Both the position numbers and the translations under genes were made by a program. A stretch of DNA of 64,000 nucleotides, taken from positions 310,001 through 374,000 of the forward strand of contig OZ316896.1 of the NCBI GenBank assembly GCA_973895155.1, given 5' to 3'. This DNA is from Marsupella aquatica (taxonomy: Eukaryota; Plantae; Marchantiophyta). Below, piece after piece: positions 11,117 to 38,429 of this stretch (within the stretch, counting starts at the first letter, position 1; the number at the start of each line of letters is the position of its first letter). Below the pieces are notes generated by a model that saw only the letters and a program-made list of their open reading frames with translations, was not told where the DNA came from and searched no databases.

Positions 11117-12905
11117 ACCTACACCTCCTTGGCCTCGGCCAAGCCGGTCCCCGCCACCGTTTCCACCACCTCTCCGAGTACGATCCATGGTGAATGCGAT
11201 ACATATCAGCTCCAAAGACGAGGAGGCTCACCCTCCTCTGAATTGACGACCGCGGGGTACAAACAACCCCGCACCACCCCAGCAAGCCCGAGGGGACAAC
11301 ACGGTAACGCTAGCGGCCCTGGCACCAATACTCACGGCAGTCATGCTACCACCACCTGACCGAGAGGATGGAGAGATGTCCCCTTCTTCTAGTCACCCCG
11401 GGAATCAGTCTCGGGGTAGGAAGAGGAAGGAGACCGCAGCCTTATCCGGGTTGCCTTTGGCCACGATTGCGGTAGCCAAGTTGACCATGCATCGCATGGG
11501 GGACAACGTTCACAAGAACATCCTCCACCCCAAGCATGCATGCTATCTGAAGACCCAAGGGTTTGAGCACCTCGCCTCTCTCCCTTGGAACGGAAGCAGG
11601 TATTACGGGCAGGATATGATGAAGTTCATTCAAAACTTTGATGAGGCCCGTCAACAAACCCGAGCGCACGGGAGAGTGATGTGTCTCGATGAGGCACGTC
11701 TGAAGATGATTTTCGGCTTACCCGAGGGGATAAACCGGGTAGAGTCGCGGGCTCCTTGGGGCAAGGGAGCTAAATACCAGCCATCTAGCTTCCCGGCTGA
11801 ACGGGTGGTAGACAATGGGTTCTTAATGAGGACGTGCCTCATCCCGGAGGTAGCAGAACGCCTAGAGTTCCGGCGGTATGCCCTCCACATGATGGAACCT
11901 AGAGGAGAACTATCGGCCCAGGAAGTGGGCATCCTTCTTCGTCAAGAAGTTCCACGAGGAGATGGAGCGAAGAAGAAAGACTTTGTACCTTGGTGGGAGG
12001 GCGTACTTCGCTAGCCACGTCGAAATCATCCTCGAGTGGTACGCTCGTTTCGATTGCCGAAGCCTCCCGCATCTCAATGAGCCCAAGCTGACCCCGCCAA
12101 AATGGGTGTTCCCAGCCCAGGTAAGGCAACCGCAGCCCGAGGCCCGAAGTCTGGCAACTGCAAGTCCTGCTACCCCGGCCCCGCAACCCGCCGCTGCCGC
12201 CCCGCCAGGCATACCCATTGACGTTATCGCAACCTTAGACGCGATCAATCGGGACAATGCCATCAAAGTCGGGCCGGATGAAGCCGTACCCAAAGCAGAT
12301 ACCACGGTGGCCGGGGAGATTCCGCCACCCCCCGCGGTGGTGCAGGAGAACCACCCACCTCCAGTGGAACCAGCCCCTTCGACCGACTTACCTCAAGGAC
12401 TGGATGTGTCCACTCCTACTCCCGCACGGGTTGAAGTCTGCCCGTGCCTGAATCCAGAGGGACACAGTCTAGACCATCTGGAACTCTTTGCGTTGGGCAC
12501 TTTTCTGAATGGGTTGTTGGGAGATTTCTTGCAATAGATCTCTCGGGACACCGGGGAATACATGGCCCGGAGGGTGGCCTACTTCTTCAACCAGGAGTTG
12601 GTTGCGGTAGTAAGGGCAGGACATGCGCAGGCAGAGACCGCGCAGAGAATAGAGCGATATCGGGTTGAGTCTGCCTACCTGAAGGATGAAGTGGCAACCC
12701 TGGAGGCTGAACTCCAGCAACTACGGCCTCAGGTAACGGCCACGGAGGACCAGGTCGCCGAGGCTAGAGCCCAAGCACCGTTGGCAATATAGGCTGGGCT
12801 CGGAAAGGACGCCAAGATTGCGCGGCTCCAAACCAAGATTGACGGTTTGCAGGGGCAAGCTGTCAGTTGGTAAAAGGATCTGGAGGAAGCTGACTCCAGG
12901 TCTCA

Positions 12906-15798: not shown

Positions 15799-16404
15799 TC
15801 TCAGCGGGACACAGCCGAGATTGACGCCCTGAAGGCAGAGGTGGCACGGCTTCAAGGAGAAGCCACTAAACAGGCCCAGTTGGTGGACAAGCTGACGAGC
15901 GACACCCAACAACTGGAGGAGGCATGCCATGAGGCCGCGGAAGAGGCAGACGCGGCGAAGCGGGAAAACGAATCTCTGCTAGACCAGGTCCAGCTACTCA
16001 AGCAGGACGCCGACAGGCTTAGAAGGCAACGGGATAGCCGCTCCCACTCAGGCGGCTCTGGCAAGCGCGCCAGACATTAGCGGCGGAGTAGGATTAGAGT
16101 AGAGTTCGGAATAGCTCAATTAGGCTATAGGGACAAGCACCTGCCCTAGTTAGAGCAACACTGCCATGTTGTACAACCTGTGTAGATTAGGATCTCCTAA
16201 TAAGATAAGTTGTTTTCCGGCCTGACAGCCAGCTTAGTTAGGACCTTAGTTAGCAAATCTTTGGACGTGAGGGCACTCCATTCCTTGGCCCTTAGTATTT
16301 AGTGCACCCCTCGGTAGAGGCAGGGGGTTTTTTAGTCTCAATGTGGGACATCCGCGGTATGTGCGGGGAGTCCCGATCTCTGGGAGTGAAAGAGTACCGA
16401 GGGG

Positions 16405-16719
16405 ATCATCCAACCATTCGTCCGGATCCTCATCTCCTCTCCCATGAAATGCCTTGTAATGTATGCACGACCGCTGGCTCAATCTGGTCCCTGGCCTCTC
16501 GTCTGGCCGTGCCTCTGGTTCCCCCATGTAGGTTGGAGACTCACTTCTCCTTACCGACTCTTCTTCTGGTATGTCTTCTTCGACGCCACTTCCAGTTTCG
16601 GAGCTACCAGCTCTTTCTGCCCTTCTCAGTCGTTGTGTATCATGCCACCCGGCGAGCTGCTGCAGTCGAGCTCTCTCCCGTTGAATCACTCTTTCTTCCC
16701 TCGGCGTAAGGTCAGTCAT
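16405..16719 (-). pseudogene. gag: Truncated Ty3/gypsy gag N-terminus of the family A element
   Basis: ATG 70 bp downstream of the LTR end. YKAFHGRGDEDPDEWLDD fits the gypsy gag/capsid F.G...EDP..WL motif. Homology stops abruptly at ~16405. Confidence 0.72.
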
Positions 16720-16765
16720 TACCTACGCTTCCGTTCTAACTTCATATCTCACAGCTTAAGAAATG

Positions 16766-16784
16766 CCCCCTCCATCTAGCGCCA
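16766..16784 (-). promoter_or_regulatory. Putative primer binding site TGGCGCTAGATGGAGGGGG
   Basis: TGG-initiated motif 4 nt after the LTR 3' end (..GCACCACA tttt TGGCGCTAG..), the canonical PBS position; priming tRNA not identified. Confidence 0.75.
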
Positions 16785-16788
16785 AAAA

Positions 16789-19700
16789 TGTGGTGCATCC
16801 CATGGCTCCCTAAACCCAAGAAACCCCCAGCTCAAGCCGATTCCCGCAGGTTTCACGCTTGGCGAGGCCGTTTCCGCGGCTTAGCGGCATGGGACGCTGC
16901 TAACCTTCTACTACTACTATTAACATTTTACACACATATACTGGACAGATCCTTCATCGGGTCATGAGATACGTAGCCGGCCTAATCTAGGCCTTCCCCT
17001 GTCTTCCCCTTCATCTTGTTAGGTATGTTTGGATTCCGCCGCCGGAATGATCCCCAATAGGCTTGGTTAAGCCGCTAAGACCTCTCTCAGCTCGACACAT
17101 CCAACTCTCACTCCCCTGCTTACTTTCCTTCTGGTTGATGTGGGCACTCTTCACACAAGTTAATGCGACACACAAATAGCAAAATGACTCATTCTGACTG
17201 AGTCATACCATGCACTTGCCATACAAACAGTACATCTCATACACAAGCTCTGCGAACTAAGCCGTGAGGCCAACTCTATTCAGCTCTTAGGCATGAGGAA
17301 ACATGAATATACACAAGGGTCACTGTATGACTAACCGAGAGCTTCTCGTACTACTTGATCCCAGCCCGGCTGGTGCAAACTAAAAACTTGCTAAAGAAGA
17401 GGCCCTGAGCTCCCCGCTGCCCAGGTACTTATCCTGGTACGTAGTGGATCCGCCATTCTTTGCATCGTAAGCCTAATCTACCTAACAGTAATCTACTTGC
17501 CCGAATCTACCTATGTACAGCAAGGTAGGAGCACAAGTGTTACTCCTACCAGTGGAACCGCAATCCCACTAAGCTAAGTGTCAGGGCCGCTCCTGGTCCT
17601 GATCCTAATCCTAAACTTGGAGATCAGCGCCCACCCTGCCCACTCACGCCTCCTCCCTCCACGTCCGCCCTCCCTAAAAGGAACGGCGCCCTTGCACCGT
17701 CACGACACTGGTGGAGGATCCTTAATGGACGCCCCCAACGCTTCCTCCTCAGCCACTGCCGTAGGTTCATTCTCTGACAGATTACCTGCCCTTGACTGAG
17801 TCAACTCTCCATCGGCCTGACTGGGTCCACCATCGGCGTCGGCATCGGCTCGGGAATTGGTTACGGCCTCAGCCTCGGCTACGGTCTCCCCGGCCTGCTC
17901 AAGAGGCGGATCTGGAATACCGGCCTCATTACTGAGTAGTTCGACTTGGGCCGCACCACCCCCACCTGTGATGATAGCGGGATCTATTGTCGTATTCATG
18001 CCGGAGGATGGTGCTGGTTCTACCTCCTTGGTCACCACGGCTTGTGGAGTCGGATTACTCCTTGACCCTGAAGGTTTCCGCTTTTTCTTCTTTTCTAGTT
18101 CGGCAGCTGGTCCCTTCCCCTTCCCACCTACTTCCGGCACTGGTGCAGGTGGCGCGGCTTTTTCTTCGGCCAGTACCACTCCTGGTAACTTGGTTGCCCC
18201 AATTGGAGTTGGGCCTGATGAAGACAAGCACTTAAATACTGCGGCTTGTTTCTTCAGCCGCTCCATTTGGTTGTCGGCCCGCCGCTGGAGGTTCTCCATC
18301 TTCCTCGTGATTTCCTCCAACTCCTCCTGGGTCTCATCCAGGTCCTTGCGTGCCTCCTCTAGTTCCTTCTGGGCTTCCTCCCGTTCTTGTTTCAAGGTAG
18401 TCCTCTCCTCCCGGGTTGCTCTTAGCTCCTTGTCGAGCTTTGCAATGATGACAGACTCCATCTGGTTCATCTTGGCGTAAGTCTGATCGAGCATCTCGTC
18501 CTTCTCCCTTAGGTCGGCCTTGAAGCTGGCCGTCAGGGACGCAAGCTCCTACTGCAGCGCCATAATCCCTTGATAGGATTTCCCTAACTCGGCCTCCTTC
18601 TGCTCAAGGGCTCCGCGGATTTTCTCGAGCTCCCCCTTCAACGCCCATTCCTTTCTTTGGGTCTCCGCCATGGCCCGACTGTTGGCTGTTATGTGGGCCT
18701 CCTCTGTATTCTTCAGCTCTTGCTTCCACTTCTCCCTCTCTTTGATCGCGTCGGCCAACTCTCCCTGCGTATGAGTCAGTTTATCCTTGATATTCTGATT
18801 ATCAGCCTGCGCGGTGTCCAACTGCCCCTGCATGATGTTCAGCTCATGCCGTTTAATCCGCAGTTCATCTTGGGCTTTCTTGGCCGCCCTTAGATCTCAA
18901 TCTCGGCTTCCATCCTCCTAAGCCGCCGAATGACCTCGTCCTTCTTGCTTCTCTCTAAAGCCACCGCTTCTTCTAATTGGTGCTTCTCCAACTGCTCCCT
19001 ATGGAAAAAGGGTCCTACCTCCAACTCCTCTCCAAAGATGCCGAGCGCAAGTTCCCCACACATCTCACCATACTCCATGGCTCTATTCTTACCGTAGGTG
19101 GAGTAAGTAGAAGTGATCGGCATCGCCCATCGTGGCCTTTGCTCCCAAGCCGTCTTGCGGATCTCTTAAATCGTGGCTAGAGGTTTGCTTCCTTTTTTGG
19201 CTAGCCGCCTGATGTCCTCCGGCCAATCTCCTCCTGGTAAATCCTTTTCCCTAGTCAGGGCTGCCTCCTCTTCCTGCCTGATTCGCTCCTGAAATTCCTG
19301 CACCGTCTGTTTTATGCCGTCAAAGCTCGGGGGAGCAACATCTGGTGGGGGAGACTCAGGGCTACTCTGCTGGTTGGGGTCCCCTCGCACTACCCTTGGA
19401 AGTGTGGGGACAAACCGGCCACAGGTCCTTACTCCTGGAACGTGATGGTCCGACCCATAGCCGGAATTATCATGGCTGCAGTCCTCCACTGCCTCCTCTA
19501 CTTCTTGGACGTCCGGCTTCTCCCTCTCCTCTTCGTCGGTAGGAGCTTCAGGCAATTCTACCTCAGATTCGGAGCTTGAGATTCCCACATACATTCGAAC
19601 ACCTGGCTTGGATTCCGGCCTGATTCTCTCCTTGTCTCCAGCAAAGGGGTTTTCTCTTGTGAGCCGGTGTAGGCCTACCTCTGTAGTAGTGTCCTGCATT

Positions 19701-21490
19701 GTTGTCGTTGCCGTTGTTGTTGCCGATGCCGATCTCTTTTCTTTCTCCAGTAGTTTCAGCAGACTCTGCATGCCTGGTTGCTGCATCGGCAAGTCTTCCT
19801 TCCTGGGTCTAAACACCTTCTCGATCGTAGGGCTAACAGGTGTTGAGGCTTCTCAGCCAACGGCCTCGGCGTTGGAGCTTCCTCGGGTGCCCTTACCTGC
19901 AGGGGAAGTACTGGGGCAAAAGTCTGACCTCTGGCATACCGGCACAACAGCGGCATGTGATAGCCAAGCCGCAACACGCTCCCCATACCGATTACCTGCT
20001 ACTCCTCCTTTAAGATCTTCTTCAATTGGTTGAGGAGGTACCCGTTGTAGTCCCGGCTTGGGTCTGGCCTTTCTGCCAGATAGACCTGTGCCTTGCCGAT
20101 CTCTGCCCTTGGCAAGTTACAATGCATGGTCACCCGCAAGAAGTTGATCATCTCTCCTATGTGCGGGTTGGTACAGGTGTTCCGGAAGAAGCCATTCTTC
20201 GTTGATGGCCCGGGGAACGACCGGAACTCCTTGTCAGGCAAGGTCTTTCTGGTATCAACTTTGGTCTTATTGCCTATCGGCAAGCCAAACACTTCGGCAA
20301 TTACCTTGGGAGTAAGATAGAAATCCTTCCCATATATCCTCGTGCAATTGGTCTCGGGTTCCCATGACCCCACGAATTCTAATAGGTCTGACTCCGGTAC
20401 CTCTGGCTTCAGCCATGGTAATCTTACAAAGGCCTCTAAGCCGGATCCGGCCATGAAGCCTTGGTACTTCTTGGTCTGCATGGCCGTAAAGCATGCATCC
20501 TCCTCCCGTGCAAAATGTAGTTGCACCTCCACCGGTAGGGTTGCCGCCCAGCCCTTCCAGGTGTCATCCCTGGTTGGAATGGCCTTGATGGGATCGACCT
20601 CCTCTTCTTTGGCTTCTCCCTGCCTCCTGCTCTGCTGCTCGGCTGGCTTCTTTGGTGCCGCCGACCTCGTTCTTTTTGCCGGGGTGGCTTCATCGTTGAC
20701 GGCTCCCTTCCTCTTCATCTCTGCTGCCGTGGAGGTTTCTCCTAGCACCGTTGCCTGGGTCCACCTTTCCGTGCTACCCTTTAATTCCCAGTGTATGTCG
20801 TTGCAGTTCTTGATGGCCTCTCGGATGCCGACGACGCTGTCGTTGCAGTTCTTGATGGCCTCTCGGATGCCGACGACGCTGTCTTTGCAAAATAGAAGAT
20901 CGTCGAGTTGATTGGAAGTAGGCGTCCACAGGAACTCGTCCTTGATGAGTTCGCCTCCTAAGAAAGCCGTCTTCTGCAGCTCCCACAATCGAGCGAGCTC
21001 CTGCCGTTCTCGAGCTGCCCTTTCTGATTCCTCGTCCTCGTAAGTCTTGATGTACTCAGTTGCCCATTCGAACAGGCATCCCTAGAAATGTGCCGCTTGA
21101 TTGACGTTGCTCATACCCTCCTTAGGTCGATCGTCGGTATCTACTCTCTCCCCGAGTGCTTGCCTAAGCAGCTGACAGTAGTTGGCCTCCCGTAGTCGTC
21201 TGCCTAGTTTGTGCTCGCAAATGAGTCACCATCTCCTGCAAGCGCTCCTTACCCCTCTCCTCTGCCGGTCCTTCTTCCCGTTGATCCTTCCTAGCCGCCG
21301 ACGCTTAACGCACCCTAACCCTAATTGAGTTTTCACCCTCAGCGTCCTTACCTTCGGCCTCGGCCCGGGTTCCATGGTTGCCCCTAATGGTTTATATTTT
21401 CCTTGTTTTGTCCCTATACTAAGGTGTTCCTAGGGTGCCTTCCTGCTTTACCCACTTAACTGGCCGAGTGATTCCTGTCTAGGCATCACA
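16789..21490 (-). mobile_element. Giant coding gypsy LTR, family A copy 2 (complete 4,702-bp 5' LTR)
   Basis: Minus-strand termini TGTGATGCC...GCACCACA; near-identical to 24133-28792; followed by PBS and gag; inserted inside copy 3. Confidence 0.92.
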
Positions 21491-23250
21491 ATCAGTGCCG
21501 TTGCCATTGCCGTTGCCGTTGCCGTTCTTTTTTCCTTCTCCAGCAATTTCAGCAGATTTTGCATGCCTGGTTGCTGCATCGGCAAGTCTTCTTTTCTTGG
21601 CCAAAACACCTGCTCGATCGTCGGACTGTCGGGCTGGTTGAGCTTCTCTGGTGCTGGCCCCTGCTCCGGAACCTCCTCCGGTGCCCTTGCCGATAGGGGA
21701 AGTACTGGGGCAAAGATTTGACTTCTGGCATACCGGCACAATAGCGGCATGTGATAGCCAAGCCGGGACACGCTTCCCACGCCGATCACCTGTTGTTCCT
21801 CCTTCAAGATCTTCTTCAGTTGGTTGAGGAGGTACCCGTTGTAATCCTGGCTTGGGTCTGGCCTTTCTGCCAGGTAGACCTGAGCCTTGCCGATCTCTGC
21901 CCTCGGCAAGTTACAATGCATGGTCACCCGCAAGAAATCGATCATCTCTCCGATGTGTGGGTTGGTGCAGGTGTTCCGGAAGAAGCCATTCTTCATTGAT
22001 GGTCCTGGGAACGACCGGAACTCCTTGTCAGGTAAGGTCTTCCTGGTATCAACCTTGGTCTTATTACCCATCGGCAAGCCAAACACCTCGGCAATCACCC
22101 GGGGAGTGAGATAGAAATCCTTCCCATACACCCTCGTGGAATTGGTCTCGGGTTCCCATGATCCCATGAATTCTAATAAGTCTGAGTCCGGCACCTCCGG
22201 CTTCAGCCATGGTAATCTTACGAAGGCTTCCAAGCCGGATCCGGCCATGAAGCCCTGGTACTTCTTGGTCTGCATGGTCGTAAAGCATGCATCCTCCTCC
22301 CGTGCAAAGTGTAATTGCACTTCCTCCGGTAGGGTCGCCGCCCAGCCTTTCCAGGTGTCATCGTTTATTGGAATGGCATTGATGGGATCGACCTCTTCCT
22401 CTTCGGTTTCTCCCTGCTTCTTGCTTTGCTGCTCTGCTGCTTTGTTGGCTTCCTTGGTGCCGCCGACCTCGTTCTTTTTGCCGTGGTGGCCTCTTCGTTG
22501 TTGTTTCCTTTCCTCTTCATCTCGGTTGCCGTGGATGTTTCTCCTAGCAAGGTTGCCTTCGTCCACCCCTCCGTGTTACCCTTCAACTCCCAGTGTAGGT
22601 CATTGCAGCGATTGATGGCTTCCCGGATGCCGACGATTCTGTTTTCGCAAAATAGAAGGTCGTCGAGCTGATTGGCAGTAGGAGTCCACAAGAACTCGGC
22701 CTTGATAAGTTCTCCTCCTAAGAAATCCGTCTTCTGCAGTTCCTAGAGCTGAGCGAGCTCCTGCCATTCTCGAGCTGCTCTCTCCAATTCTTCGTCCTCG
22801 TAAGTCCTGACGTACTCACCTGCCCATTTGAACAGGCATCCCCAAAAATGTGTCGCTTGATTGACGTTGGTCATACCCTCCTTGAGTCGATCGTTGGTAT
22901 CTGTTCCCACCCCGAGTGCTTGCCTAAGCAGCTGACAGCATTTGGCCTCCCGTAGTCGTCTGCCCAGTTCGTTCTTGCAAATGAGCCACTATTCCTCGCG
23001 AGCGGTCCTTACCCCTCTCCTCCTCTTCTTCCCTCTCGTTGGTCACCCCTAGCCGCCGACGCTTAGCGCGCCCTAACCCTAATCGTGTTCTCTCCCCCGG
23101 CGTCCTTAATTCCGGCCTCGGCCCGGGTTCCATAGTCACCCTTAATTGTTTATATTTTCCTTTGTTTTTGTTCCTATACTAAGGTGTTTCCAGGGTACAC
23201 TCTTGCTTTACCATGTAAAGCGGCCTAGTGATTCCTGGCTAGGCATCACA
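21491..23250 (-). mobile_element. Giant coding gypsy LTR, family A copy 3 (5' 1.76 kb, interrupted by copy 2)
   Basis: Starts TGTGATGCCTAGCCAGG on the minus strand at 23250. The ORF runs to LEKEKRTATATAMATA and is cut at 21491. Confidence 0.88.
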
Positions 23251-23329: not shown

Positions 23330-24132
23330 TGATAGGGTAGAAATTTAGCAAGTTAAATTAATAAAATTTTGAAGAGTAAGTATCGATCGAGTTACAATTA
23401 AGTAGAGGTCTACCATTAGAGGGAAATTACTATTTAAACCTTAAAAGAACAACTAGAGCTTCATTTTGTCTAGTCGAGGCTCAGTTTTTGGTTAGTTGGT
23501 AGTTCTATAGCGATGGATCGGTCTGGAGTCATCCGCTTAGTTGGAGTAACGATTGCGGCAATTTAGGGCATGCATGGCAATGACTTAGTTTATGAGGGAT
23601 GCAATATCCTATAGACGATGGAAAGCTATGTGCCTTAGGGCCCAGTACACACAGAGCTAGACTGAGCAAAGGAAATTGGAATGTAGGGTTGCCAATGAGG
23701 AACCGAGTGAATCATTGTTGTTGACCAGTAGGTTCCGGCCAATACATGTACAGTTTCTTTGTGCAAATCAATGATGATGTTTATCAAGTGTGGGAAGAAG
23801 TCGGCTGTCAACTATTTGGAGTCACTGGGCATGAGTTTCATATGCAAGTGGATGCACAGGAACAAAATTGTTATCGTGTCATGAATGAGCGATGGATAGT
23901 GCAAACTGTGGAAAATAGAAGAATCTGACTAAACAAATATTAGGGTTCCACAGGATGAGAACTCACTCAAACTATCAACAAACAGGAGAAGGGACCAGTG
24001 AAACAAGAATGGCACCAGTGGAGACAACAATGCATGAACTTAGCATTGAAGCAACAGACACAAGAGATGGAATCAAAAACGACCGCTCAGGAGAACGATT
24101 AACTGAAGAACAACCAGTCAGGAGGTGCACTA

Positions 24133-27100
24133 TGTGATGCCTAGACAGGAATCACTCGGCCGGTTAAGTGGGTAAAGCAGGAAGGCACCCTAGGAACACC
24201 TTAGTATAGGGACAAAACAAGGAAAATATAAACAATTAGGGGCAACCATGGAACCCGGGCAGAGGCCGGAGGTAAGGCTGAGGGTGAAAACCCGATTAGG
24301 GTTAGGGCGCGTTAAGCGTCGGCGGCTAGGAAGGATCAACGGGAAGAAGGACCGGCAGAGGAGAGGGGTAAGGAGCGCTTGCAGGAGATGGTGGCTCATT
24401 TGCGAGCACGAACTAGGCAGACGACTACGGGAGGCCAACTACTGTCAGCTGCTTAGGCAAGCACTCGGGGAGAGAGTAGATACCGACGATCGACCTAAGG
24501 AGGGTATGAGCAACGTCAATCAAGCGGCACATTTCTGGGGATGCCTGTTCGAACGGGCAACTGAGTACATCAAGACTTACGAGGACGAGGAGTCAGAAAG
24601 GGCAGCTCGAGAACGGCAGGAGCTCGCTCGATTGTGGGAGCTGCAGAAGACGGCTTTCTTAGGAGGCAAACTCATCAAGGACGAGTTCCTGTGGACGCCT
24701 ACTTCCAATCAACTCGACGATCTTCTGTTTTGCAAAGACAGCGTCGTCGGCATCCGAGAGGCCATCAAGAACTGCAACGACATACATTGGGAATTAAAGG
24801 GTAGCACGGAAAGGTGGACCCAAGCAACGGTGCTAGGAGAAACCTCCACGGCAGCAGAGATGAAGAGGAAGGGGGCCGTCAACGATGAAGCCACCCCGGC
24901 AAAAAGAACGAGGTCGGCGGCACCAAAGAGGCCAGCCGAGCAGCAGAGCAGGAGGCAGGGAGAAGCCGAAGAGGAGGAGGTCGATCCCATCAAGGCCATT
25001 CCAACCAGGGATGACACCTGGAAGGGCTGGGCGGCAACCCTACCGGTGGAGGTGCAACTACATTTTGCACGGGAGGAGGATGCATGCTTTACGGCCATGC
25101 AGACCAAGAAGTACCAAGGCTTCATGGCCGGATCCGGCTTGGAGGCCTTTGTAAGATTACCATGGCTGAAGCCGGAGGTACCGGAGTCAGACCTATTAGA
25201 ATTCGTGGGGTCATGGGAACCCGAGACCAATTGCACGAGGATATATGGGAAGGATTTCTATCTTACTCCCAAGGTAATTGCCGAAGTGTTTGGCTTGCCG
25301 ATAGGCAATAAGACCAAAGTTGATACCAGGAAGACCCTCCCTGACAAGGAGTTCCGGTCGTTCCCCGGGCCATCAACGAAGAATGGCTTCTTCCGGAACA
25401 CCTGCACCAACCCGCACATAGGAGAGATGATCGACTTCTTGCGGGTGACCATGCATTGTAACTTGCCGAGGGCAGAGATCGGCAAGGCACAGGTCTATCT
25501 GGCAGAAAGGCCAGACCCAAGCCGGGACTACAACGGGTACCTCCTCAACCAATTGAAGAAGATCTTAAAGGAGGAGTAGCAGGTAATCGGCATGGGGAGC
25601 GTGTCGCGGCTTGGCTATCACATGCCGCTGTTGTGCCGGTATGCCAGAGGTCAGACTTTTGCCCCGGTACTTCCCCTGCAGGTAAGGGCACCCGAGGAAG
25701 CTCCAACGCCGAGGCCGTTGGCTGAGAAGCCTCAACCACCTGTTAGTCCTACGATCGAGCAGGTGTTTAGGCCCAGGAAGGAAGACTTGCCGATGCAGCA
25801 ACCAGGCATGCAGAGTCTGCTGAAACTACTGGAGAAAGAAAATAAATCGGCATCGGCAATAACAACGGCAACGGCAACAATGCAGGACACTACTACAGAG
25901 GTAGGCCTACACCGGCTCACAAGAGAAAACCCCTTTGCTGGAGACAAGGAGAGAATCAGGCCGGAATCCAAGCCAGGTGTTCGAATGTACGTGGGAACCT
26001 CAAGCTCCGAATCTGAGGCAGAATTGCCTGAAGCTCCTACCGACGAAGAGGAGAGGGAGAAGCCGGACGTCCAAGAGGTAGAGGAGGCAGTGGAGGACTG
26101 CAGCCATGATAATTCCGGCTATGGGTCGGACCATCACGTTCTAGGAGTAAGGACCTGTGGCCGGTTTGTCCCCACACTTCCAAGGGTAGTGCGAGGGGAC
26201 CCCAACCAGCAGAGTAGCCCTGAGTCTCCCCCACCAGATGTTGCTCCCCCGAGCTTCGACGGCATAAAACAGACGGTGCAGGAATTTCAGGAGCGAATCA
26301 AGCAGGAGGAAGAGGCCGCCCTGGCTAAGGAAAAGGATTTACCAAGAGGAGATTGGCCGGAGGACATCAGGCGGCTAGCCGAAAAAGGAAGCAAACCTCT
26401 AGCCACGATTGAAGAGATCCGCAGGACGGCTTGGGAGCAGAGGCCACGATGGGCGATGCCAATCACTTCTACTTACTCCACCTACGCTAAGAATAGAGCC
26501 ATGGAGTATGGTGAGATGTGTGGGGAACTTGCGCTCGGCATCTTTGGAGAGGAGTTGGAGGTAGGACCCTTTTTCCATAGGGAGCAGTTGGAGAAGCACC
26601 AATTAGAAGAAGCGGTGGCTTTAGAGAGAAGCAAGAAGGACGAGGTCATTCGGCGGCTTAGGAGGATGGAAGCCGAGATTGAAGATCTAAGGGCGGCCAA
26701 GAAAGCCCAAGATGAACTGCGGATTAAACGACATGAGCTGAACATCATGCAGGGGCAGTTGGACACCGCGCAGGCTGATAATCAGAATATCAAGGATAAA
26801 CTAACTCAGACGCAGGGAGAGTTGGCTGACACGATCAAAGAGAGGGAGAAGTGGAAGCAAGAGCTGAAGAATACAGAGGAGGCCCACATAACAGCCAACA
26901 GCCGGGCCATGGCGGAGACCCAAAGAAAGGAATGGGCGTTGAAAGGGGAGCTCGAGAAAATCCGCGGAGCCCTTGAGCAGAAGGAGGTCGAGTTAGGGAA
27001 ATCCTATCAAGGGATTATGGCGCTGCAGCAGGAGCTTGCGTCCCTGACGGCCAGCTTCAAGGCCGACCTAAGGGAGAAGGACGAGATGCTCGAACAGACT

Positions 27101-28792
27101 TACGCCAAGATGAACCAGATGGAGTCTGTCATCATTGCAGAGCTCGACAAGGAGCTAAGAGCAACCCAGGAGGAGAGGGCTACCTTGAAGAAGGAATTGG
27201 AGGAAGCCCACAGGGAGCAGGAGGAGGCCAAAAACGAGCTGGAGGGGGCACGTAAGGACCTGGATGAAACCCAAGAGGAGTTGGAGGAAATCACGAGGAA
27301 GATGGAGAACCTACAGCGGCGGGCCGACAACCAAATAGAGCGGCTGAAGAAACAAGCCGCAGTATTTAAATGCTTAGCTGCAGCAAGTCCATCTCCCGTT
27401 GGGACAAACCAGTTACCAGGGGTGGTAATTGCCGAAGGACAAGCCGCGCCAACTGCACCAGTGCCGGAAGTAAGTGGGAAGGGGAAGGGACCAGCTGCCG
27501 AGCCACCAACGAAGAAGAAGCGGAAACCTTCAGGGTCAAGGAGTAATACGACTTCACAGGCCGTGGTGATCAAGGAGGTAGACCCAGCACCGACCCCAGA
27601 CAGGGTCACGGCTAAGGATCCAACTACCCTAGGGGAAGGGGAGGCCGAAGCCGAGGGAGTGGCTGAAGCCGAAGCCGTGGGAGTGGCTGAGGCCGAAGCC
27701 GTGGGTATTGCCGAGGCCGGTGTCGAGGCTGAAGCCGAAGGTGGACCCAGTCAGGCCGATGGAGAGTTGACTCAGTCAAGGGCAGGTAATCTGTCAGAGA
27801 ATGAACCTACGGTAGTGGCTGAGGAGGAAGCGTTGGGGGCATCCATTAAGGATCCACCACCGGTGTCGTGACGGTGCAAGGGCGCCGTTCCTTTTAGGGA
27901 GGGCGAACGTGGAGGGAGGAGGCGTGAGTGGGCAGGGCGGGCGCGGATCTCCACGTTTAGGATTAGGATCAGAACCAGGAGCGGCCCTGACACTTAGCTT
28001 AGTGGGATTGCGGTCCCACTGGTAGGAGCAACACTTGTGCTCCTGCCTTGCTGTACATAGGTAGATTCGGGCAAGTAGATTACTGTTAAGTAGATTAGGC
28101 TTACGATGCAAAGAATGGCGGATCCACTACCAGGATAAGTACCTGGGCAGCGGGGAGCTCAGGGCCTCTTCTTTAGCAAGTTTTTAGTTTGCACCAGCCG
28201 GGCTGGGATCAAGTAGTACGAGAAGCTCTCGGTTAGTCATACAGTGACCCTTGTGTATATTCATGTTTCCTCATGCCTAAGAGCTGAATAGAGTTGGCCT
28301 CACGGCTTAGTTCGCAGAACTTGTGTATGAGATGTACTGTTTGTATGGCAAGTGCATGGTATGACTCAGTCAGAATGAGTCATTTTGCTATTTGTGTGTC
28401 GCATTAACTTGTGTGAAGAGTGCCCACATCAACAGAAGGAAGGAAAGTAAGCAGGGGAGTGAGAGTTGGATGTGTCGAGCTGAGAGAGGTCTTAGCGGCT
28501 TAACCAAGCCTATTGGGGATCATTCCGGCGGCGGAATCCAAACATACCTAACAAGACGGAGGGGAAGACAGGGGAAGACAGGGGAAGGCCTATATTAGGC
28601 CGGTTACGTATCTCATGACCCGATGAAGGATCTGTCCAGTATATGTGTGTAAAATGTTAATAGTAGTAGTAGAAGGTTAGCAGCGTCCCATGCCGCTAAG
28701 CCGCGGAAACGGCCTCGCCAAGCACGAAACCTGTGGGAATCGGCTTGAGCCGGGGGGTTTCTTGGGTTTAGGGAGCCATGGGACGCACCACA
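24133..28792 (+). mobile_element. Giant solo LTR, family A copy 4 (4,660 bp)
   Basis: TGTGATGC...GCACCACA termini; perfect 5-bp TSD CACTA (24128-24132, 28793-28797); no gag or pol inside. Confidence 0.95.
24248..27871 (+). CDS. LTR-encoded protein (~1,120-1,207 codons, one internal TAG at 25577-25579): PMD/plant-transposon-like domain, Pro/Glu linker, long coiled coil, KKKRK NLS-like motif, acidic tail
   Basis: ORFs 24248-25579 and 25592-27871 share one frame. The stop is a sense codon (EEQ) in copies 1 and 3. A conserved Met at 24506 is an alternative start. EFVGSWEPET..G..LTPKVIAEVFGLPIG resembles the PMD W.PET...G..T......GLP..G signature. Confidence 0.75.
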
Positions 28793-31499
28793 CACTATCT
28801 AATAGCAAGTAACAATTAAGAGTTACTTGTTTTATTAGACAAGTAACTTTAGTGAAATAAAACGGTTACAAAAACCGAATAAGCAGTTTGACAGTTGCAA
28901 CTGCTAATAGTTAGGAGAAGTTAAGAAAAACCTATCTGTATAGGGATATAGGGTAGGAGAGTAGGAGTGAGAAGGGTCTTTTGTTGTGAAAACTTTCAGG
29001 ATCAGGAAGCTATAGAGGTAGCCCAGGAAGAGGTAGTGTTGAATTGTTAGACCTGGAGGTGGAGAGATAGGAGTCCATGGAAGAACAACCATGTAAAGAA
29101 ATTGATGTGTTCATGGAATGAAAGATGCAATCAAGACATACTGGCAGAACTACAGGGAGTATTCAATTACATAGCTTGTATCTGTTGTATGTTGTATGTC
29201 AGTAGAATTAAAGTTAAGAAGTTAATTGTAAAGAAAAGATGGCTGGAAATATTGACATTTGACAATGGGAAATTCATTTGGATTTGGTTGGAACCTGTTA
29301 AAGGGAGAATAAGAATTGTATGGCATCTAAAAATTGATTTTGCAAACTCTTAAGAAAATCCCTGCAAGATTAGAATAAAGAGTAATTGATAAGAAATGTT
29401 GTAAAAGAGAGACCCAAAGTAGTGGAATATGGAATTAACTACCTTTGATTGGTCATTTAAATTTGAACGCATTCCATTTGGGCTACAGAATGCACCAAAT
29501 GAATGCAAACACATAATTGAAAGTTGGATAAAAATTATTGAAGAAGAAGACTTAGTAATTGATGAACCTACCACAATGGGTCTTGAGATCCTCTTTGAAG
29601 AAACATTAATTGAAGGGTAAATGGAATTTGACCTTCAATTCAGATGACAGTCGGGGTCTGCGGCTAAGGAAAGTTGGATCAATGTCTCGAGTAATTGCAC
29701 AAGTCGTCACTATCTAATTGTCGGAAAGGTTGGATAGCAAATGAAGAGTGCACAAGAAAGTACTATAGGAAGTCGTAATGGGATCAAGAACTGAATTTTG
29801 GATTTTGTTCTTATTTAGTGAGGACAGTGAACTGCTAGTGATAAGTAACTTGAGTGAAGCAAAATACAGAGCGTTGAGCAAAAGAGAGATGAAGATACAA
29901 GGAGGGGAAGTGATTATGCTGATTCATAACTCTTCCACTTATACAAAATTAACTGTTAAAGAATTACAGAAGGGAATTTGGAGACAAGTGAGACAAGCTA
30001 AATACAAGAAGGAGGCGGACGGAAACTAGTTTGCTTTGAGCTAGTAGGATGATGAGCAATTCAAGAAAAGGACTGTGTGTGTCCGTGAGACCACCCAACA
30101 AGAGTAAGGAATTGGAGAAGATTCTAGTTGTATGCTTATGGCAGAGGTTTGAATATCCAACGCCCGTGGCATTGCAAATTGGACGGGTGCTGAGGAGGCT
30201 ATAGAGGAAGTTGAGAGAGAACACAACAAACAAGGATGAGAGTCTGTTCTGGAGCAGAGACGAGGTGTTTGATTATAATATGCTAAAGGAGTTGATGTGG
30301 CTATGCGAGACACAGCTAATGTTACTTGAAGATTGCACCCCAATGTTGAGTGGATAAGGAAATGAGGTGATTAGTCAGAAAAGATAGCCTGGTTTAGCTG
30401 TTATTTTGTGAAGTCAGAACAGTGAGTCAGAATGTCAAATTTTGTGTTTGTAAGTCTGGAAGGGGCTCTGTCAAGCTAACGATGATATTTGTTAGCTAAG
30501 AATTATTTATATACGCAAAGTTGCAATGAGGTTTTCCACGATGGGACAAACTGAGCTCATGAAAAGCTTTCAACTGGAACTCTGGAGTACTCATTGTGAA
30601 CTATATATAATTATAAAGGATTCGAGGAGGAATTATTGACCACTCATGGTGGGAGTATTGGACAAATGGAATAGTGTGGCAACAACGCTATCCAAGAAAA
30701 GTATAGTTAGGTGCGCAACAACGAAAGTGAAGGGCGCGCGACTGGGCAGTAAAAGCGCCAATGATACCTTTGAGAAGGATGAAAATTCCAATTTTTAAAG
30801 GTACATTAGAGGAAGACGCTGACACACATTTGACCAGATTTGAAGAAATGCTTCAAGCTAATCACAAGCAAAATGATGTAACAAGATTGGAACTGTTTTC
30901 AAGTTCTTTGGATAAGGGTGCTTTTGTATGGTACACCCAATACCCACCTGGTCATTTTCAAGAATGGGAACATTTATCAAAAGCTTTCTTAGACCAGTAC
31001 CAGGTGGCTAAAGAAGAAACTGATCTGTATAGCATTTTATAAAATATGACGCAGCAAAAGACAGAATCAGTTCAAAGTTACATAGGATGATTAAAAGTTG
31101 TTATGCGCAGATTGACTCATCAACCATCCGATGCTCAACGGATTAGTTGGATGAGGAGAGCAGTTAAAGAAAATCTAGTAATTAATTGTGGTAAAAAAAA
31201 TCCCACTCAAGATGCTGATGAGTATGAGAGAAGGCTAAACCCTAAACTTATAAGTTGGAAAAGACGGTATTGGCTGATAAGGGAGCAATGGTACACTTAA
31301 ATATAAAAGGAACTTACAAAAAATAAGAATGTATTGTTAGATGGTGGTTCAGCAGTTAATTTAATGAGTGAAGACATATTTTGGAAAACTGCAAAAGTAA
31401 AGATAGTACCTGCACCTTTTAATCTATTAATGGCAGCTCAAAGTAGTTGCCACCCATTGGGTTATATACCAGAATGAGCTCAATACCTGTGCGTTGCAC

Positions 31500-31960
31500 A
31501 AAAGATGGATGTCGTGTCGGCCATGATGTTGTGTCTGTCAAGATGTCGATAAGAAAAAAGAAGTCGTTCTGCCCAAGATGTTGTTATGTGAAGATATTGA
31601 TAAGAAAAAAGATGTCGTGTAACCCAAGATATCGTTATGTGAAAGATGTCACCAAGAATTTTTTTTTGTTAAGAATAAAGAAGTTTTGTCACCAAAGACG
31701 TCGTTATGTGAAAGATATCATCAAGTAAAGAAATGTCATCGAGTAAAAAGATGTCATGGCGCCAAAGATGTCGTGGTGCCAAAGATGTAGTGAAGTAAAA
31801 CGATGTAAAGAAATAAAAAAAGTACCATGGCGCAAAAGATGTTGTATCATGTAAAATGTCGTGAAGTAGAAAGATGTCATGATGCCAAAGATGTTGTCAA
31901 GTAAAACAATGGTGTTATGTCAAAGATGGCGCAAAGTAAAAAGATGTTGAGGTGCCTAAG
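31500..31960 (+). repeat. Degenerate tandem array built on AAAGATGTC(G/A)T
   Basis: aaagatgtc/aaagatgtt recurs at roughly 10-22-bp spacing. Confidence 0.7.
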
Positions 31961-32665
31961 ATGTTAAAGGTTGGAGGTTTTGTTATTTTTGTCTCCTTAG
32001 AGTACTTGGAGTTTGGAGGGAGAGAGGAGCACACCAAAGAGGGCAGCACAACGGGGAGGGGGGAGGAGAGCGACACGTGGTTGCACCACTGTGCATTGAG
32101 GGCCAAGAGGAGAGGGTTGCGGGAAGAGAAGTGGAGGACAATTTTTCCAGATTTATTCCTTTCTTTTTACAGTTTTGGTACATTTTGAAACATCATGTTA
32201 AATTCAAATGATGGTCACGCCATTTTCTGGTGCAATAGTGTATTATATGTTTTGATAGAGATAACAAAAAGCAAAAGCAGTTAACATGAGACTTAATTTC
32301 TTCTAATTGCAAACATTTACAAAGGCTCTCATAATGGAAAGTGGAAATTTTGAGCTATGTTCATATCCTCCAATGCACACATAGATAGTCTTCTTGGACA
32401 TAAAATGCGGAAAAATAGGCCTTTACAATGGCCTTCAAATAAGATAATCTATCTCTTATCACTTTCCTAGCTTAAGCCCTTCATGAATTTACTTTTTACA
32501 ATTAATTTCAGGGCATTTATAAAAAAAATGCACATTCAAAATATGGATCGCCACATTTTTATTTCTCCTCTGCTTTTACTAAAGTGAGGAAAATGAAAAT
32601 ATTTTACTCTTCAGATGTGTTAACTTCTTATTACCTGATTATGAGCAATATTAACTCTCAAAACT

Positions 32666-35600
32666 TCCGCTCAGCCACACACATTTGAGTTTCATGCGAC
32701 GAAACTCCGAATGTGTCACCGACACTGAACGCTGGAAAACCCCCACAAAAAACCAAAAAAATAGGTTAGTGAGAGGGTTTTCTAACGTGGTTAGAACTCG
32801 CTGATCGGTATCCATGGTGCGAAGGAATCAAAGTTTGCGTCGTTCAGGTTTTATTCGTGTTTGACGGTTTTTTGGGGGAGAAACCAGAGTTTGCGTTTTT
32901 CAACGGTGTGAGCTGTGCGGTGCGGGAGGGATTGCACATTATAGCTCAAGTTGAAGGTTGAAGAGAGCTGATCGTTTTGATAGCTGAATTGTTGCCAAGT
33001 TGTTACCGAGTGCGACGTGACGAGTGAAGGAGGCGTTCAGGTTTTTTCACAAGCTATGGAGCTTGTTCCCATCTGAACCGGGTTTCTCTTCGTGACGTCC
33101 GACTCGGTGGAAGAAACGCGAAGTGCTACGGCTCAACGGTTTGATCAAGGCAAGGCACACGGCGGAAATTGGCACTTGACGCGGAGTAAAGGCGACACGG
33201 CGGAAATTGTTTACTCAACTGAAGCTGCAGACTGTGCGTGTGCAATTTGGCAACATTTCCCGTCGGCGGCGTTCACTTTACTCGTGAGAAACGACGGAAA
33301 TTAGGTGAGTTATTCATTCACTTTTTCCCGGGGGTGTTTTTTGGCCTTTTAAGGGGGTTTTAGGGCCCTTATTTTTGTGTATATACACACGAGGTGTATA
33401 CACATCTTGTACCAATACCCCTCGCATACCAAGTCCCCCCGCCCCCCGCACCCCATTTTTTCACGCGCGCGGCAACCCTGCGCAGCGCTGGCCGATGTGA
33501 AAGCAGCCGCCCGATTGCTGCTGCCTTTTTCCCCCTCCCCTTCGGCCGTGCCTTGCTCTCACGCCCCCATGCTCGCCCTTGGGCCGGCCCTGCGCCCCCG
33601 GTCGTCCCTTCTTGCCCTCCCGCCGGTGCCCCTCCTCGGCGCACGACGCAACATTAACCCCCCTGCCCCCGTCTCCTGTTGGCCCCTTTAGGCCCCTTTT
33701 TAAAGCCTCTTTTCATGTTTTTTCCCCGGTTCTTTTAAGTGGCTATCCCGGGACCAGTGACCCAACGTTTTAACTGCTTGGACAGGGGGAATGGCCCCCT
33801 GTGGGCCCTGTCAGACTGTGTGGGAATATTCCCAAAACACAAAGAGCTATTTTTTGGCCGTCCAACAAAAATTCTGCGCGTCGAACAGTCACTTTTTTGG
33901 TTTTTTTTTGGTGAGGTTGTAGCCATGGGATTTAGCAATGCGACGCACCAATCACATCATAATTTCAACTTGGTATTTTGGTTATTCCCTGCGGTGGTCA
34001 AAACGGGGGAGTTTCCCAAGGTTTTACCCACCCCGACCAAAATTTGAATAGCTTTTTCGTCAAATTTTGATTTTGATTTCGGCTTTTGGTATTGGACTCC
34101 TAGATTTGTGGGCTATGCGGCAGTGTTGAGTTTTGAGTTTTATGAGAAGTTTTGAAAAAAGACGTTTTTTTGTGATTGTTTCATATGAGTGACTCGGAGA
34201 ATACTAGAAGAATTGGCGTCGGAGGAGCTTCAGGATCGCGACAATCAGACGGTGAGTCTGAGGAGGAGCTACTACCATTTGAGGAGGAACTAGTTTCACC
34301 GGTACGATCATCGGTGCGGCATGCAGTGGAGGAAGTTGTTCTACTACCAGAGCTGTCGGCAGTGGGGAAGAAGAGGGAGATGGCTAGATTTGGAGGAGTG
34401 AATTTTGAGGTGGAGAAGTACAATGGCCGTACTGACTACTTGCTGTGGGAGAAGCAAGTGAAGGGTGTTCTTCGGGCCATGGGCTTAGCTCACTGCTCTC
34501 TTCGCGAGAGCAATATGATAGAGAGGAAGAGATCTCAAAGAAGCAGTGGAGACAGGAGCAGGTGATTGTTGTTAATGTAGTGATGCTTTATCTCAAGCCG
34601 CACATCATCAAGAAGTTGGATGATTATGCGGATTGTGTGTCACTGTTCAAGGCTCTAAGAGAGAAATACTACCGAGAAGATGCGTCAGATCGGCTATACA
34701 AGGAGTCTCTAGTGAGATACGGCGGTGAATATAGTTCCGGGGAATTTGAAACGTATTGTAAGGAGCAGGGGATTACCCGCCATCTCACAACAAGTTATAC
34801 TCCTCAGCAAAATGGTTTTTTTAAGAGACTCAACCAAACACTATTAGACCGCTCGAGGAGTATGTTGAGTCAATCATGCTTACCACATGAGTTTTGGGCT
34901 GAAGCTGTCAACACTGCAGCTTATTTGGTAAATTTTTCTCAATCCAATTCTATTGGATTCAAGATGCCATTTGAAATGAGGTACGGGCGTCCAGTAGATT
35001 ACTCACATATGAGGATTTTTGGATGTGATGCTTATGTACTTACACCTTCCCAGCTTCGATCCAAGCTGGAGTCCAAGTCAAAGAAGTGCATTTTCCTTGG
35101 CTATCAAAAAGGTGTGAAGGGTTATAGGTTATGAGATCCATTAACCTGTAAGCTAATTGTCAGTAGAGATGTGTCCTTTAATGAATCCAGATCATCAAAG
35201 GAGGGGGAGAGTTCTCAGGACTCCCATACTGACAAGGGGAAATCTCCCATCCCGGATCGGGTTGAGGAGGAAATTAGTCATGATGTTGTTCATGATAGGA
35301 GAGATGGAGAAACTCCGGGCTTGGAGTCGGTTCCTATGTTGGAACAAGAGGAGTAGATTGTTGCTGGGGTACCTCAAATTCAGCCAGCAGCAGCAGCAGA
35401 TCAGCCTGAGTCATCTACTAGAAGAACTTCCAATCATTCTACTAGAGCTCCTACTAGGTATGGTCAATGGACAGACTCATCTAAGCTAGATGATATTGAC
35501 ATTGCACCTGATGAAGATGATATGGCTTTGATCTTGGAAGAATGAGAGCCTTCTTCGTACAGTGAGGCTTGTGCTTCAAAGTAGAAGCATGAGTGGAATG

Positions 35601-37659
35601 CAGCAATGTAGAGGGAGTTGCAATCCTTGAGTGACAACAAGACTTGGGAGCTCGTGGAGCTTCCAAGAGGTCATCAAGTGGTGGACAGCAAGTGGATTTA
35701 TAAGTTGAAGGACATTCCTTCAGAGGGTGGAGACAAGATCTTCAAGGCAAGGCTTGTTGCCAAGGGATTCACTCAGGAAAAAGGAGTGGATTACAATGAG
35801 GTCTTTTCACCGGTGGCTAAGTATTCCACAATTTGGATCTTGTGTCAGCTTGTTGTGTTTTTTGGTTTGGTGATGGATCAAATGGATGTTGTTACTACTT
35901 TTCTCTATGACAACTTGGAAGAGATGATCTTCATGAGACAACCACTAGGCTTTATGAAGAAGGGCCAAGAGAACTTAGTTTGCAGATTGCTCAAGTCCTT
36001 GTATGGATTGAAGCAATCTCCCAGACAGTGGAATAAGCGATTTGATGATTTCATGCTTGCTCAAGGTTTTACAAGGATGGTGTATGATCCTTGTGTGTAT
36101 ACAAAATCAGTCAAGAATGATGTGTTTGATTTCATCATTCTGGTTATCTATGTGGATGATAAGCTGATTGTGGCTAAAGATCAATCTGAGGTTGACAGTC
36201 TCAAGGCAAAATTGAGTTCTCAATTTAGGATGAAGTATCTTGGTAAGGCCAAGAGGATCTTAGGGGTGGAGATTTTTAGGAACTCTGATACTGGACAGTT
36301 GTACGTGCTTGAGTCAAGGCCAGTATCCGAGGAAAGTACTTGCACAATTCAACGTGGAAAACTTTAAGCCAGTGAGTATTTCTTTAGCTTCACATTCAAG
36401 TTATCATCGGCTTTCTCTCCTACGGATGCTGTGGAGAAAGGTCTGATGGCTAAGATTCCTTATGAGAAGGCAGTAGGCAGTCTGATGTATTTAATGACTT
36501 GTACTAGGCCTGACTTGGCCCTAGCGATGGGCAAGGTTAGCAGATTCATGTCAAATCAGGGAAGATACATTGGGAAGCTGTGAAATGGATTCTCAGGTAT
36601 CTGAAGGGAACACAGGACTATGGATTACTATTTGATAACAGATCAGATAGAACGTTGGTTGGATATGTAGATTCTGACTATGGAGGCTGTCTGGATACAA
36701 GGAGGTCTACAACTGGGTTTGTATTTACTCTTGGAGGAGGATGTACCAGTTGGAAATCTACCTTGCAGAAGTGTATATCTCAGTCTACTACAAAAGTAGA
36801 GTATGTTGTAGCAGCAAAAGCAACAAAGGAAGCAATTTGGTTGGACAAGTTGATCGCGGAGATGGGTTTAGAGCATGGCAAAATGACTCTAAACTATGAT
36901 AGTCAGAGTGCTCTTCACTTGGCTGCTAACCAGGTGATGGATAGCAGGGTGAAGCAAATTGATATTAGGTACCATTTTATCAAGCAAGCAGTGTCTGATA
37001 AAACTTTTGAGCTAGTCAAGATTGATGGAAAGCTCAATCCTGCTGATGCTTTTACCAAAGTGATTTCTTTGGAGAGTTTCTCAAGACATCGTGCTACTTT
37101 GCAGGTTTTGCAGTTGTAGTGCAAGTAGAGTTATTTAGCAATGTGTGACTATTTGTATATGGATTACTCATTCCAGTTTGGCTACGACTTAGTTCTAGTT
37201 AACCCTTGTGGTTTTTAGGTGGAGACCTGTTTAGGTGATTGTCTAGAATTTCCCGCTGAGTATGCCATATGGTTGCATTTAGTCCAGTCCCCAAGACAAG
37301 AGTCAAGGGGGAGTTTGTTAGATATTGCTCTAGTCTTGTGACTCATGAGCTAACCATAGTTAGGCTAACTCGGGTTAGGACTTAGCTAATGTTAGCGGTA
37401 GTGTTGTTGTGTATTAAGCCAGGGCTAATGCCAGACCCTGGTGGAACTTAGGCTCATTGTTAAGGAGCTAGTTGAGAGATAGGGAGAGCTTGTGTTGTGG
37501 ATGCTTGGTATGGCCGGTCGGCCTAGAGTGTAGTAAAGCTCTTGTGTGTTCCCGTGGACGTAGCCTCATGTGGAGGTGAACCACGTATCTCTTTGTGTCA
37601 ACTCTTGTACGTTGGATGGTTCATGGGCTTGCAGTTGCAAATGTTGTCTATGCTCAATA
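32666..37659 (+). mobile_element. Ty1/copia copy A: no 5' LTR, internal gag-to-integrase deletion, pseudogenised; PPT plus 3' LTR 37316-37659
   Basis: gag FEVEKYNGRTDYLLW; integrase PQQNG, WAEAVNTA; [24 protein letters not shown]; RNase H IDIRYHF, ADAFTK; AGGGGGAG PPT before TGTTAG. Confidence 0.92.
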
Positions 37660-38429
37660 GTTGTGAGTTTGGGAGGGTGACCTAGTAGGGGTGACCTCTT
37701 CACCCAGGTTACCATGTCTTTGTGCCATGGGGGCATACCTTGGAGAATGAGGATTAGCTCCTCATATATTCTTCCAAGTTGAGCCTCCCGGCATTAGTAG
37801 AGCTATGTGGGTGTGGCTATGGTGAGAGAGAGAGAGTGTATGCCGGTTGGCATGTAGAGTAGAGCGACATTAGCAGGGTTGTGCTATGTGTATAGACTTG
37901 GAGTCCCGCATGGCTAGCGGGTGAGTTTGGCTCGACTTAGTGATACCTTGTGGTGGGGTCCCATTTCGCAAGAGATTGTTATGGATTTTGGCGTACATGT
38001 ATTGTGTGTCGTGTGATTATCTTTTTCTTGTTTACATGGTGTGCCATGATGTGAGTTGTGTATGGATGTGTGTCCACACAACAGATGGATGAAAATACTT
38101 CTTAGGACCAACAAAACCCCACCTCTATCTTACAGGGGCTGGAGAGCTTTCTCCACTTTGACTCACAAACTACAACAACAAAACAACAAGACCTAACTCT
38201 CCACAAAGACCTTCTTGTGAGAGTGCAAGCTTTACTAATGTGCTTCAAATAGGGCGCGTGGCCTAGGGAAAACCTGCAAGCAATTCCCTACTAAAAGCTC
38301 ACAACTAGACACCAAAGCACTATAAAGAATCGCCAATATGATACCAAGGTATACTGCCCAGACCCCGGCCCAGACCAGGGAAAACCTGAAGTCGCAATAC
38401 AACTTCTAGTTGATCTTACATTCCAACAA

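Follow-up and report, generated by a model that had tools for sequence, protein, structure and literature searches.

The unit and its reading frame

We analysed a 64,000-nucleotide stretch of Marsupella aquatica (Marchantiophyta; NCBI GenBank assembly GCA_973895155.1, contig OZ316896.1, positions 310,001 to 374,000 of the forward strand), hereafter the window, with positions counted from its first letter. At 24133-28792 lies a unit, here called copy F, which is very probably a long terminal repeat (LTR) holding a gene under selection. The features of F are as follows:

24133-28792, plus strand: copy F, solo LTR, 4,660 bp, TG…CA, terminal inverted repeat matching at 7/8 positions
24128-24132, plus strand: left target-site duplication of F, CACTA
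28793-28797, plus strand: right target-site duplication of F, CACTA
24227-24232, plus strand: TATAAA, the sole one in F, candidate promoter of the LTR gene
24506-27871, plus strand: LTR gene, 1,121 codons from its likely start, with a premature stop in F
27872-28792, plus strand: 3′ non-coding part of F, with the likely poly(A) site, R and U5

The initial annotation had described a solo LTR at this position, and its TG…CA ends, imperfect 8-bp inverted repeat and perfect CACTA duplication were all found. F starts with TGTGATGC and ends with GCACCACA (1 mismatch in 8), and the 7/8 inverted repeat is seen alike in F and in two of the further copies listed below, C and D. Copy C is itself a second solo LTR, with the same termini and its own perfect 5-bp duplication, TCTCA. 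As a perfect 5-mer has a chance of about 1 in 1,000 in each of the two solos, coincidence is negligible. Comparison of F with itself gave no qualifying direct repeat; the best same-strand self-match was 17/18 bp (E 0.064) and none lay at both ends, which rules out shorter true LTRs hidden inside F. The unit is not, however, the giant it had been called: 4.7 kb falls inside the range of plant LTRs, those of non-chromoviruses reaching about 5 kb (PMC6317226, in part; 'in part' marks here and below a source represented by a portion of its text). The TATAAA at 24227 stands 94 bp from the 5′ end of F, and the AT-rich block around it is kept in copies E and A′. At the other end, the 3′ 920 bp contain two TATATT motifs and blocks that are conserved, and colinear, in the divergent copy C.

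Most of F is taken up by one sense-strand frame, which extends from 24194 to 27871 and is split by a single stop at 25577-25579 (codon 358) into 461 and 763 codons. In 300 shuffles the longest frame had a median of 173 and a maximum of 335 codons, against the 763 found after the stop in F. No Pfam match to gag or pol was found in the two long frames, as had been noted. The claim that a whole gene survives in F fails at codon 358. This stop is shared by copy D; E and A′ read through. We compared four sequencing runs with the stretch, using all contigs (X1, X2, X3 and X6, the last under another organism label), and in these 99.2-100% of the family depth carries a sense codon at 25577-25579. Therefore the gene of the family is open there and that of F is not, and programmed read-through of the stop was rejected on the same grounds. 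The earlier figures of about 1,200 codons and 78% of the unit had been counted from the first ATG, at 24248. The 104 codons before 24506 behave as non-coding, with neutral-like ratios (see below), and similarity between F and the divergent copy C begins at the ATG at 24506. Taken together, these two observations make a gene of 1,121 codons, 72% of the unit, with its start at this ATG, the likely one.

Copies, selection and other sequencing runs

The related insertions in the window and the junction beside copy D are:

16789-21490, minus strand: copy D, 5′ LTR of a truncated element, inserted into copy E
16767-16784, minus strand: motif TGGCGCTAGATGGAGGGG, resembling a primer-binding site (PBS), 4 nt past D
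16408-16719, minus strand: start of a gag-like open reading frame (ORF), 104 codons, cut at the break near 16407
21491-23250, minus strand: copy E, sister LTR (86%) of which the 5′ 1.76 kb are present, with D inserted into it, open core domain
6610-9850, plus strand: copy A′, sister LTR (82%) of which the 5′ 3.2 kb are present, interrupted by element B and with many stops
12906-15798, plus strand: copy C, second solo LTR, divergent subfamily, duplication TCTCA, gene with a large internal gap
9851-16407, plus strand: element B, interrupted by C and by a small inverted-repeat insert, 3′ end missing

Copies D, E and A′ allowed selection on the gene to be measured as the ratio of nonsynonymous to synonymous change (dN/dS), by Nei-Gojobori counting without transition correction and with the region upstream of 24506 as internal control. 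Copy C, whose gene shares 51-64% amino-acid identity with that of F outside the large gap, is saturated in this comparison and was left out. The ORF gave 0.18 for F against A′ (916 codons), 0.22 against E (455 codons) and 0.40 against D (1,105 codons), whereas the 104 upstream codons gave 1.91, 1.19 and 0.82 against the three copies, two of which have 2-bp deletions there. Within the gene, ratios are about 0.09-0.23 in the domains and 0.23-0.41 in the linkers. Moreover, in the 201 bp at 25480-25680, 15 of the 21 listed family variants are synonymous, against 24% expected (P 5e-6, the stop left out). The gene is thus under purifying selection in the family, and the comparison of copies that the initial annotation had proposed separates the domains clearly from the ratio of about 1 upstream. 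The gene tail at 27371-27740, which includes a 24-bp tandem repeat, has a dS of 0.29 between F and D, against 0.05-0.09 elsewhere, hinting at template switching between subfamilies.

A frame of this kind could also arise from a strand rich in purines and poor in stops, or be a captured fragment that is now dead; the strand is indeed strongly skewed and every copy in the window is broken. However, the domains have ratios of 0.09-0.23 where the same frame upstream has about 1, protein relatives share 25-48% identity (two of them from Calypogeia fissa) and the stop site is open in 99-100% of the depth. These results largely refute this explanation, which we regard as extremely improbable.

The near-identical copy reported at 21490-16789 was found as copy D, on the minus strand (4,702 bp, 93.4% identical to F). 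Its gene has four stops, one being the stop of F, and two 1-bp deletions. D is followed by TTTT, by the TGG-starting 18-mer TGGCGCTAGATGGAGGGG, a putative complement of tRNA-Asn, and by an ATG at 16719. We found no tRNA gene in the window and no Rfam match in 9000-33000, no match to the motif in the examined papers or in the REXdb supplement text, and 0 matches in pattern scans of viral contigs bearing on the RNA and PBS question. Of the PBS-like motif and gag start reported beside D, the motif stands; the identity of the gag start is unconfirmed, as its 104 truncated codons have no Pfam or PDB match. We call the ORF gag-like on the strength of its position and of a motif.

The same borders recur in other sequencing runs. 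The unit or part of it is present in 13 of the 15 listed runs, and at least half its words occur in six, under four organism labels. In X6, contig 26 has an alignment that starts exactly at 24133 with its other 106 letters unaligned, two contigs have loose ends at 28792 with flanks unlike each other, and contig 25 holds the LTR end, the PBS and the gag-like start together. A purine tract, AATTAAGTGGGGAG, stands directly before the unit in three contigs of X2 and one of X3 (loose ends at 24130), and as a flank resembling a polypurine tract (PPT) it is a short consensus only. The unit thus appears in the three settings of an LTR, namely as a solo, ahead of a PBS and following a PPT-like tract, and the earlier identification of the unit as the LTR itself gains from these contexts as from the second solo. 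Summed contig depth of the unit is three to four orders of magnitude above that of the contigs from its flanks in X1 and X2, and reaches 50,318 (X1) and 82,215 (X2) over the gag-like part at 16530; we use these sums qualitatively, having rejected them as a measure of copy number.

That the unit is instead a self-standing non-autonomous element or a DNA transposon with TG…CA ends, lying beside a PBS by chance in the case of D, agrees with the fact that no pol of the family and no pair of units around an internal region were seen. This is nonetheless very unlikely, given that the LTR-PBS-gag junction recurs in a contig of another organism, that the PPT-like tract is found in two runs, that summed depth is also high over the gag-like part, and that F has neither a Pfam match to a transposase or integrase nor short LTRs inside it.

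Element B consists of two pieces (9851-12905 and 15804-16407). It begins with TG and has a canonical TATA box near 10219, 370 bp in, followed by a CT-rich leader and, from 10325, an ORF of about 870 codons in pieces. This ORF contains a distant copy of the core domain of F (27% identity, E 9e-11), its N-terminal part has no match to the N-terminus of F, and no PBS was seen in B; the element is possibly a third gene-bearing LTR. An AT-rich insert of about 230 bp at 10860-11090 in its ORF resembles a miniature inverted-repeat transposable element, with inverted ends sharing CCACGTGCGATCC.

The region 6610-23250 is a nest of five related insertions with a break near 16407, where the plus-strand insertions A′, B and C meet the minus-strand ones, D and E with the gag-like piece. 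Both halves of the nest are without their other ends, which suggests an inversion, a deletion or a join made in assembly. The nest is flanked on either side by matches to the copia-associated repeats of the window, in the same orientation. Around F itself, contigs of X1 and X2 join 24113 to 29706, so that F (with 24114-29705) may itself sit within another insertion, of about 0.9 kb, which other copies or alleles lack. The flanks of F are almost unchanged in X1 and X2, which may come from the same or a close species. A degenerate tandem array of 17/51/69 bp lies downstream of F at 31508-31965.

The window as a whole is nuclear DNA of a plant and contains a PPR gene, a pyrophosphatase gene and two copia elements. 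The two host genes, at 1589-4505 and 48235-48873 (minus strand), are a PPR protein spread over two frames and a soluble pyrophosphatase in one uninterrupted frame, the latter possibly a retrocopy. The copia elements, at 32600-37660 and 53000-59980, are decayed, related to each other (87-93% identical) and have gag and reverse transcriptase matches.

The encoded protein

The following parts of the predicted protein could be distinguished:

24506-24835, plus strand: conserved N-terminal domain of about 110 aa, without a known family, dN/dS 0.13-0.22
24986-25660, plus strand: core domain, about 225 aa, dN/dS 0.09-0.13, weak resemblance to PMD/DUF1985
26501-27370, plus strand: charged helical region, predicted coiled coil, dN/dS 0.19-0.21
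27503-27523, plus strand: basic motif PPTKKKR, resembling a nuclear localisation signal (NLS)

A second basic motif was seen by eye near residues 119-137. The charged region has one proline in 290 aa, and its Pfam matches to coiled-coil families are all sub-threshold. The protein has no transmembrane segment (maximum 19-residue hydropathy 0.98), and with no hydrophobic span the membrane role of an env-like ORF is unlikely. It has no Pfam family, and in particular no Pfam match to PMD, TRP28 or Athila ORF-1. A HMMER search over 1.84 billion proteins returned 20 matches, of which 19 were kept after P0009, a bacterial repeat protein, was dropped. These are mostly unnamed fragments; the only named relatives are two from the liverwort Calypogeia fissa, CAM6090539.1 and CAM6122807.1. 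The core domain shares 25-48% identity with its relatives, and the N-terminal domain is matched by P0004, P0006, P0008 and P0020 and has no match in the ESM Atlas. Word-index protein searches, one of which covered only 1,379-3,935 aa, gave no relative, and the 7 loci from a metagenome scan were all noise (best profile E 0.028). A PDB sequence search returned nothing useful. Fold searches with the first AlphaFold model gave a best E of 0.046 among viral structures and 4.9 in the PDB, and a best Z of 4.0 in the wide search; at a predicted local distance difference test (pLDDT) score of 51, these empty searches say nothing about the fold.

The leads to a function come from the ESM Atlas, where rows 9 and 10 are clusters of PMD (14% of members) and DUF1985 (82%), at a score of 0.88 with 141-142 shared features and below the Atlas lead threshold of 0.9. 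PMD is present in 57% of Ogre elements and is the commonest named domain in their extra ORFs (PMC6317226, in part), and a resemblance exists between PMD-C and the DUF1985 domain of VANC, an anti-silencing protein (10.1101/2024.09.27.615353; also PMC5418596). On these two links, a weak step, rests the reading of the protein as nuclear and anti-silencing. Judging from its motifs and domains, we regard a nuclear regulator as probable; a specifically anti-silencing role, argued by analogy, is more tentative and falls short of being the likely one. The protein might otherwise be a cofactor of RNA export, of the particle or of integration targeting, its coiled coil serving oligomerisation. The weakness of the PMD/DUF1985 link and the coiled-coil-like quarter of the protein speak for such a cofactor, as do the roles that have been suggested for extra ORFs in plants on the model of retroviral accessory proteins (PMC7264820, in part). 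PMD and DUF1985 are, however, the only named leads for the core, and we consider the cofactor unlikely.

Placement of the gene and comparison with known systems

Our favoured explanation, which we hold to be reasonably probable as a whole, is that F is a solo LTR of a high-copy, likely non-chromovirus Ty3/gypsy element and carries a selected gene of 1,121 codons, whose protein is predicted to be nuclear and likely anti-silencing. We infer the Ty3/gypsy and non-chromovirus membership. The long LTR and the extra ORF are traits of OTA type, and the PBS is consistent with a non-Met tRNA (PMC6317226, in part), whereas OTA clades are defined by polyprotein trees and aRH, both without counterpart in the window sequence of this family.

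We lean towards a position of the gene in U3, because gag then remains at the head of its RNA and a short minus-strand strong stop is retained. If the gene lay in R/U5, one promoter near 24227 would serve an RNA with the gene as first cistron and gag reached by splicing or a second start, the gene being a 5′ extra ORF of the Ogre ORF1 or Retrosat2 ORF0 type placed before the PBS. The sole TATAAA of F, 94 bp from its 5′ end and kept in E and A′, would suit this arrangement equally well, as would element B with its TATA box 370 bp in, CT-rich leader and ORF and with no PBS seen, and 5′ extra ORFs are known in long-LTR elements (PMC3485330, in part). It would, however, require about 4.5 kb of minus-strand strong-stop DNA and leave gag after 1,121 codons, and the 3′ 920 bp hold a candidate second promoter in the F/C conserved blocks and the two TATATT. 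We consider a gene in R/U5 the less probable placement and favour U3.

Several results count against the favoured explanation. No full-length element, reverse transcriptase or integrase of this family was seen in the window, where pol belongs to the copia elements and the internal part of the family ends after 104 codons; nor did any listed contig of the compared runs span a whole element. Neither Pfam nor PDB gave a match to the gag-like ORF, each of the five copies in the window is either broken or truncated, the gene tail is near neutral (dN/dS 0.69, F against D), and the sole TATAAA upstream of the gene fits a placement in R/U5 equally. As for the protein, the top three Atlas rows are unnamed clusters at 0.89-0.90, two of the three from Streptophyta, with both PMD and DUF1985 rows under the lead threshold; none of the 22 aligned core domains matches PMD (PF10536) or DUF1985 (PF09331) in Pfam at E up to 10; and both AlphaFold models are poor (pLDDT 51 and 42).

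Reverse transcription copies the sequence between the PPT and the PBS to both ends of an element. An extra ORF that was once internal and had a promoter of its own could have entered U3 when plus-strand priming shifted to an upstream polypurine tract. Reverse transcription would then copy the gene into both LTRs, and LTR-LTR recombination would leave one copy, so that two gene copies are expected in a full element and a single one in a solo. Transcription of the gene would start from the TATA near 24227 and terminate at the LTR poly(A) site, which would lie in the 3′ 920 bp together with the promoter of the genomic RNA. The protein, with its NLS-like motifs, PMD/DUF1985-like core and coiled coil, may bind DNA or chromatin of the element, as VANC does for Mutator-like elements. 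A bolder version, which we regard as doubtful, is that in an old Ty3/gypsy lineage of non-seed plants the LTR became a self-contained anti-silencing cassette, each solo supplying a VANC/PMD-like protein that lifts repression of the family in trans.

Plant LTRs are regarded as non-coding, and the formation of solos as a host deletion of element genes; here 72% of the LTR is taken up by a gene under selection. Provided that the copies are transcribed, the accessory gene would outlast recombination instead of being lost to it. The layout is common to subfamilies with synonymous sites near saturation, and the family occurs under at least four organism labels. The function of a plant extra ORF should be easier to test with promoter, gene and likely target in one 4.7-kb unit. 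Annotation is likely to list such LTRs as orphan host genes, and LTR finders with low length limits may overlook full elements.

The initial annotation had proposed an undescribed architecture. No plant element with a gene in its LTR was found in the literature, judged mostly from listings and with subscription papers and REXdb element tables mostly outside it, and the claim holds to that extent. Three candidate precedents (PMC6673714, PMC1560396 and 10.64898/2026.05.04.722472) were set aside because 'LTR' there means the whole element. Gene survival in solo LTRs, however, is known for sag (PMC4667437, in part). The new part is therefore an LTR gene with solo survival in a plant retrotransposon, the layout itself being known from sag.

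The sag gene, presumably shorter than the 1,121 codons found here, belongs to mouse mammary tumour virus (MMTV) and its betaretroviral relatives. Betaretroviral sag lies mostly in U3, has an internal U3 promoter and is mainly kept in solo LTRs, in 490 of 527 sag contigs (PMC4667437, in part). The present gene is like MMTV sag a protein gene within the LTR that is found in solos. In contrast, sag is an immune superantigen of an animal retrovirus and the gene described here belongs to a plant element and encodes a soluble, likely nuclear protein; we found no sequence relation between the two.

Among plant elements, those of the OTA group (PMD-bearing Ogre, TRP28-bearing Retand) are similar in their long LTRs, 5-bp duplications and lineage-specific extra gene, the product of which is in some cases nuclear or coiled-coil, and perhaps in their non-Met PBS (PMC6317226, PMC7264820 and PMC11963269, all in part). 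The same reviews, in the parts drawn on, place plant extra ORFs in the internal region; in OTA elements they lie up- or downstream of gag-pol, often antisense, whereas the present gene lies in sense orientation within the LTR, and Retand LTRs are only 315-1,194 bp against 4.66 kb here. The rice elements Retrosat2, RIRE3 and RIRE8 likewise have LTRs above 3 kb and numerous solos, together with an extra ORF0 that evolves fast (PMC3485330, in part). These elements are classed with the Tekay chromoviruses, however. Their ORF0 is described upstream of gag-pol, and LTR and ORF0 served as separate queries (PMC3485330, in part). Lastly, VANC and PMD are transposon-linked chromatin proteins, to which the core domain bears a weak resemblance seen by the language model only (10.1101/2024.09.27.615353; PMC5418596). 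VANC belongs to DNA transposons, and the present protein would join this group by that weak resemblance, with anti-silencing as a proposal.

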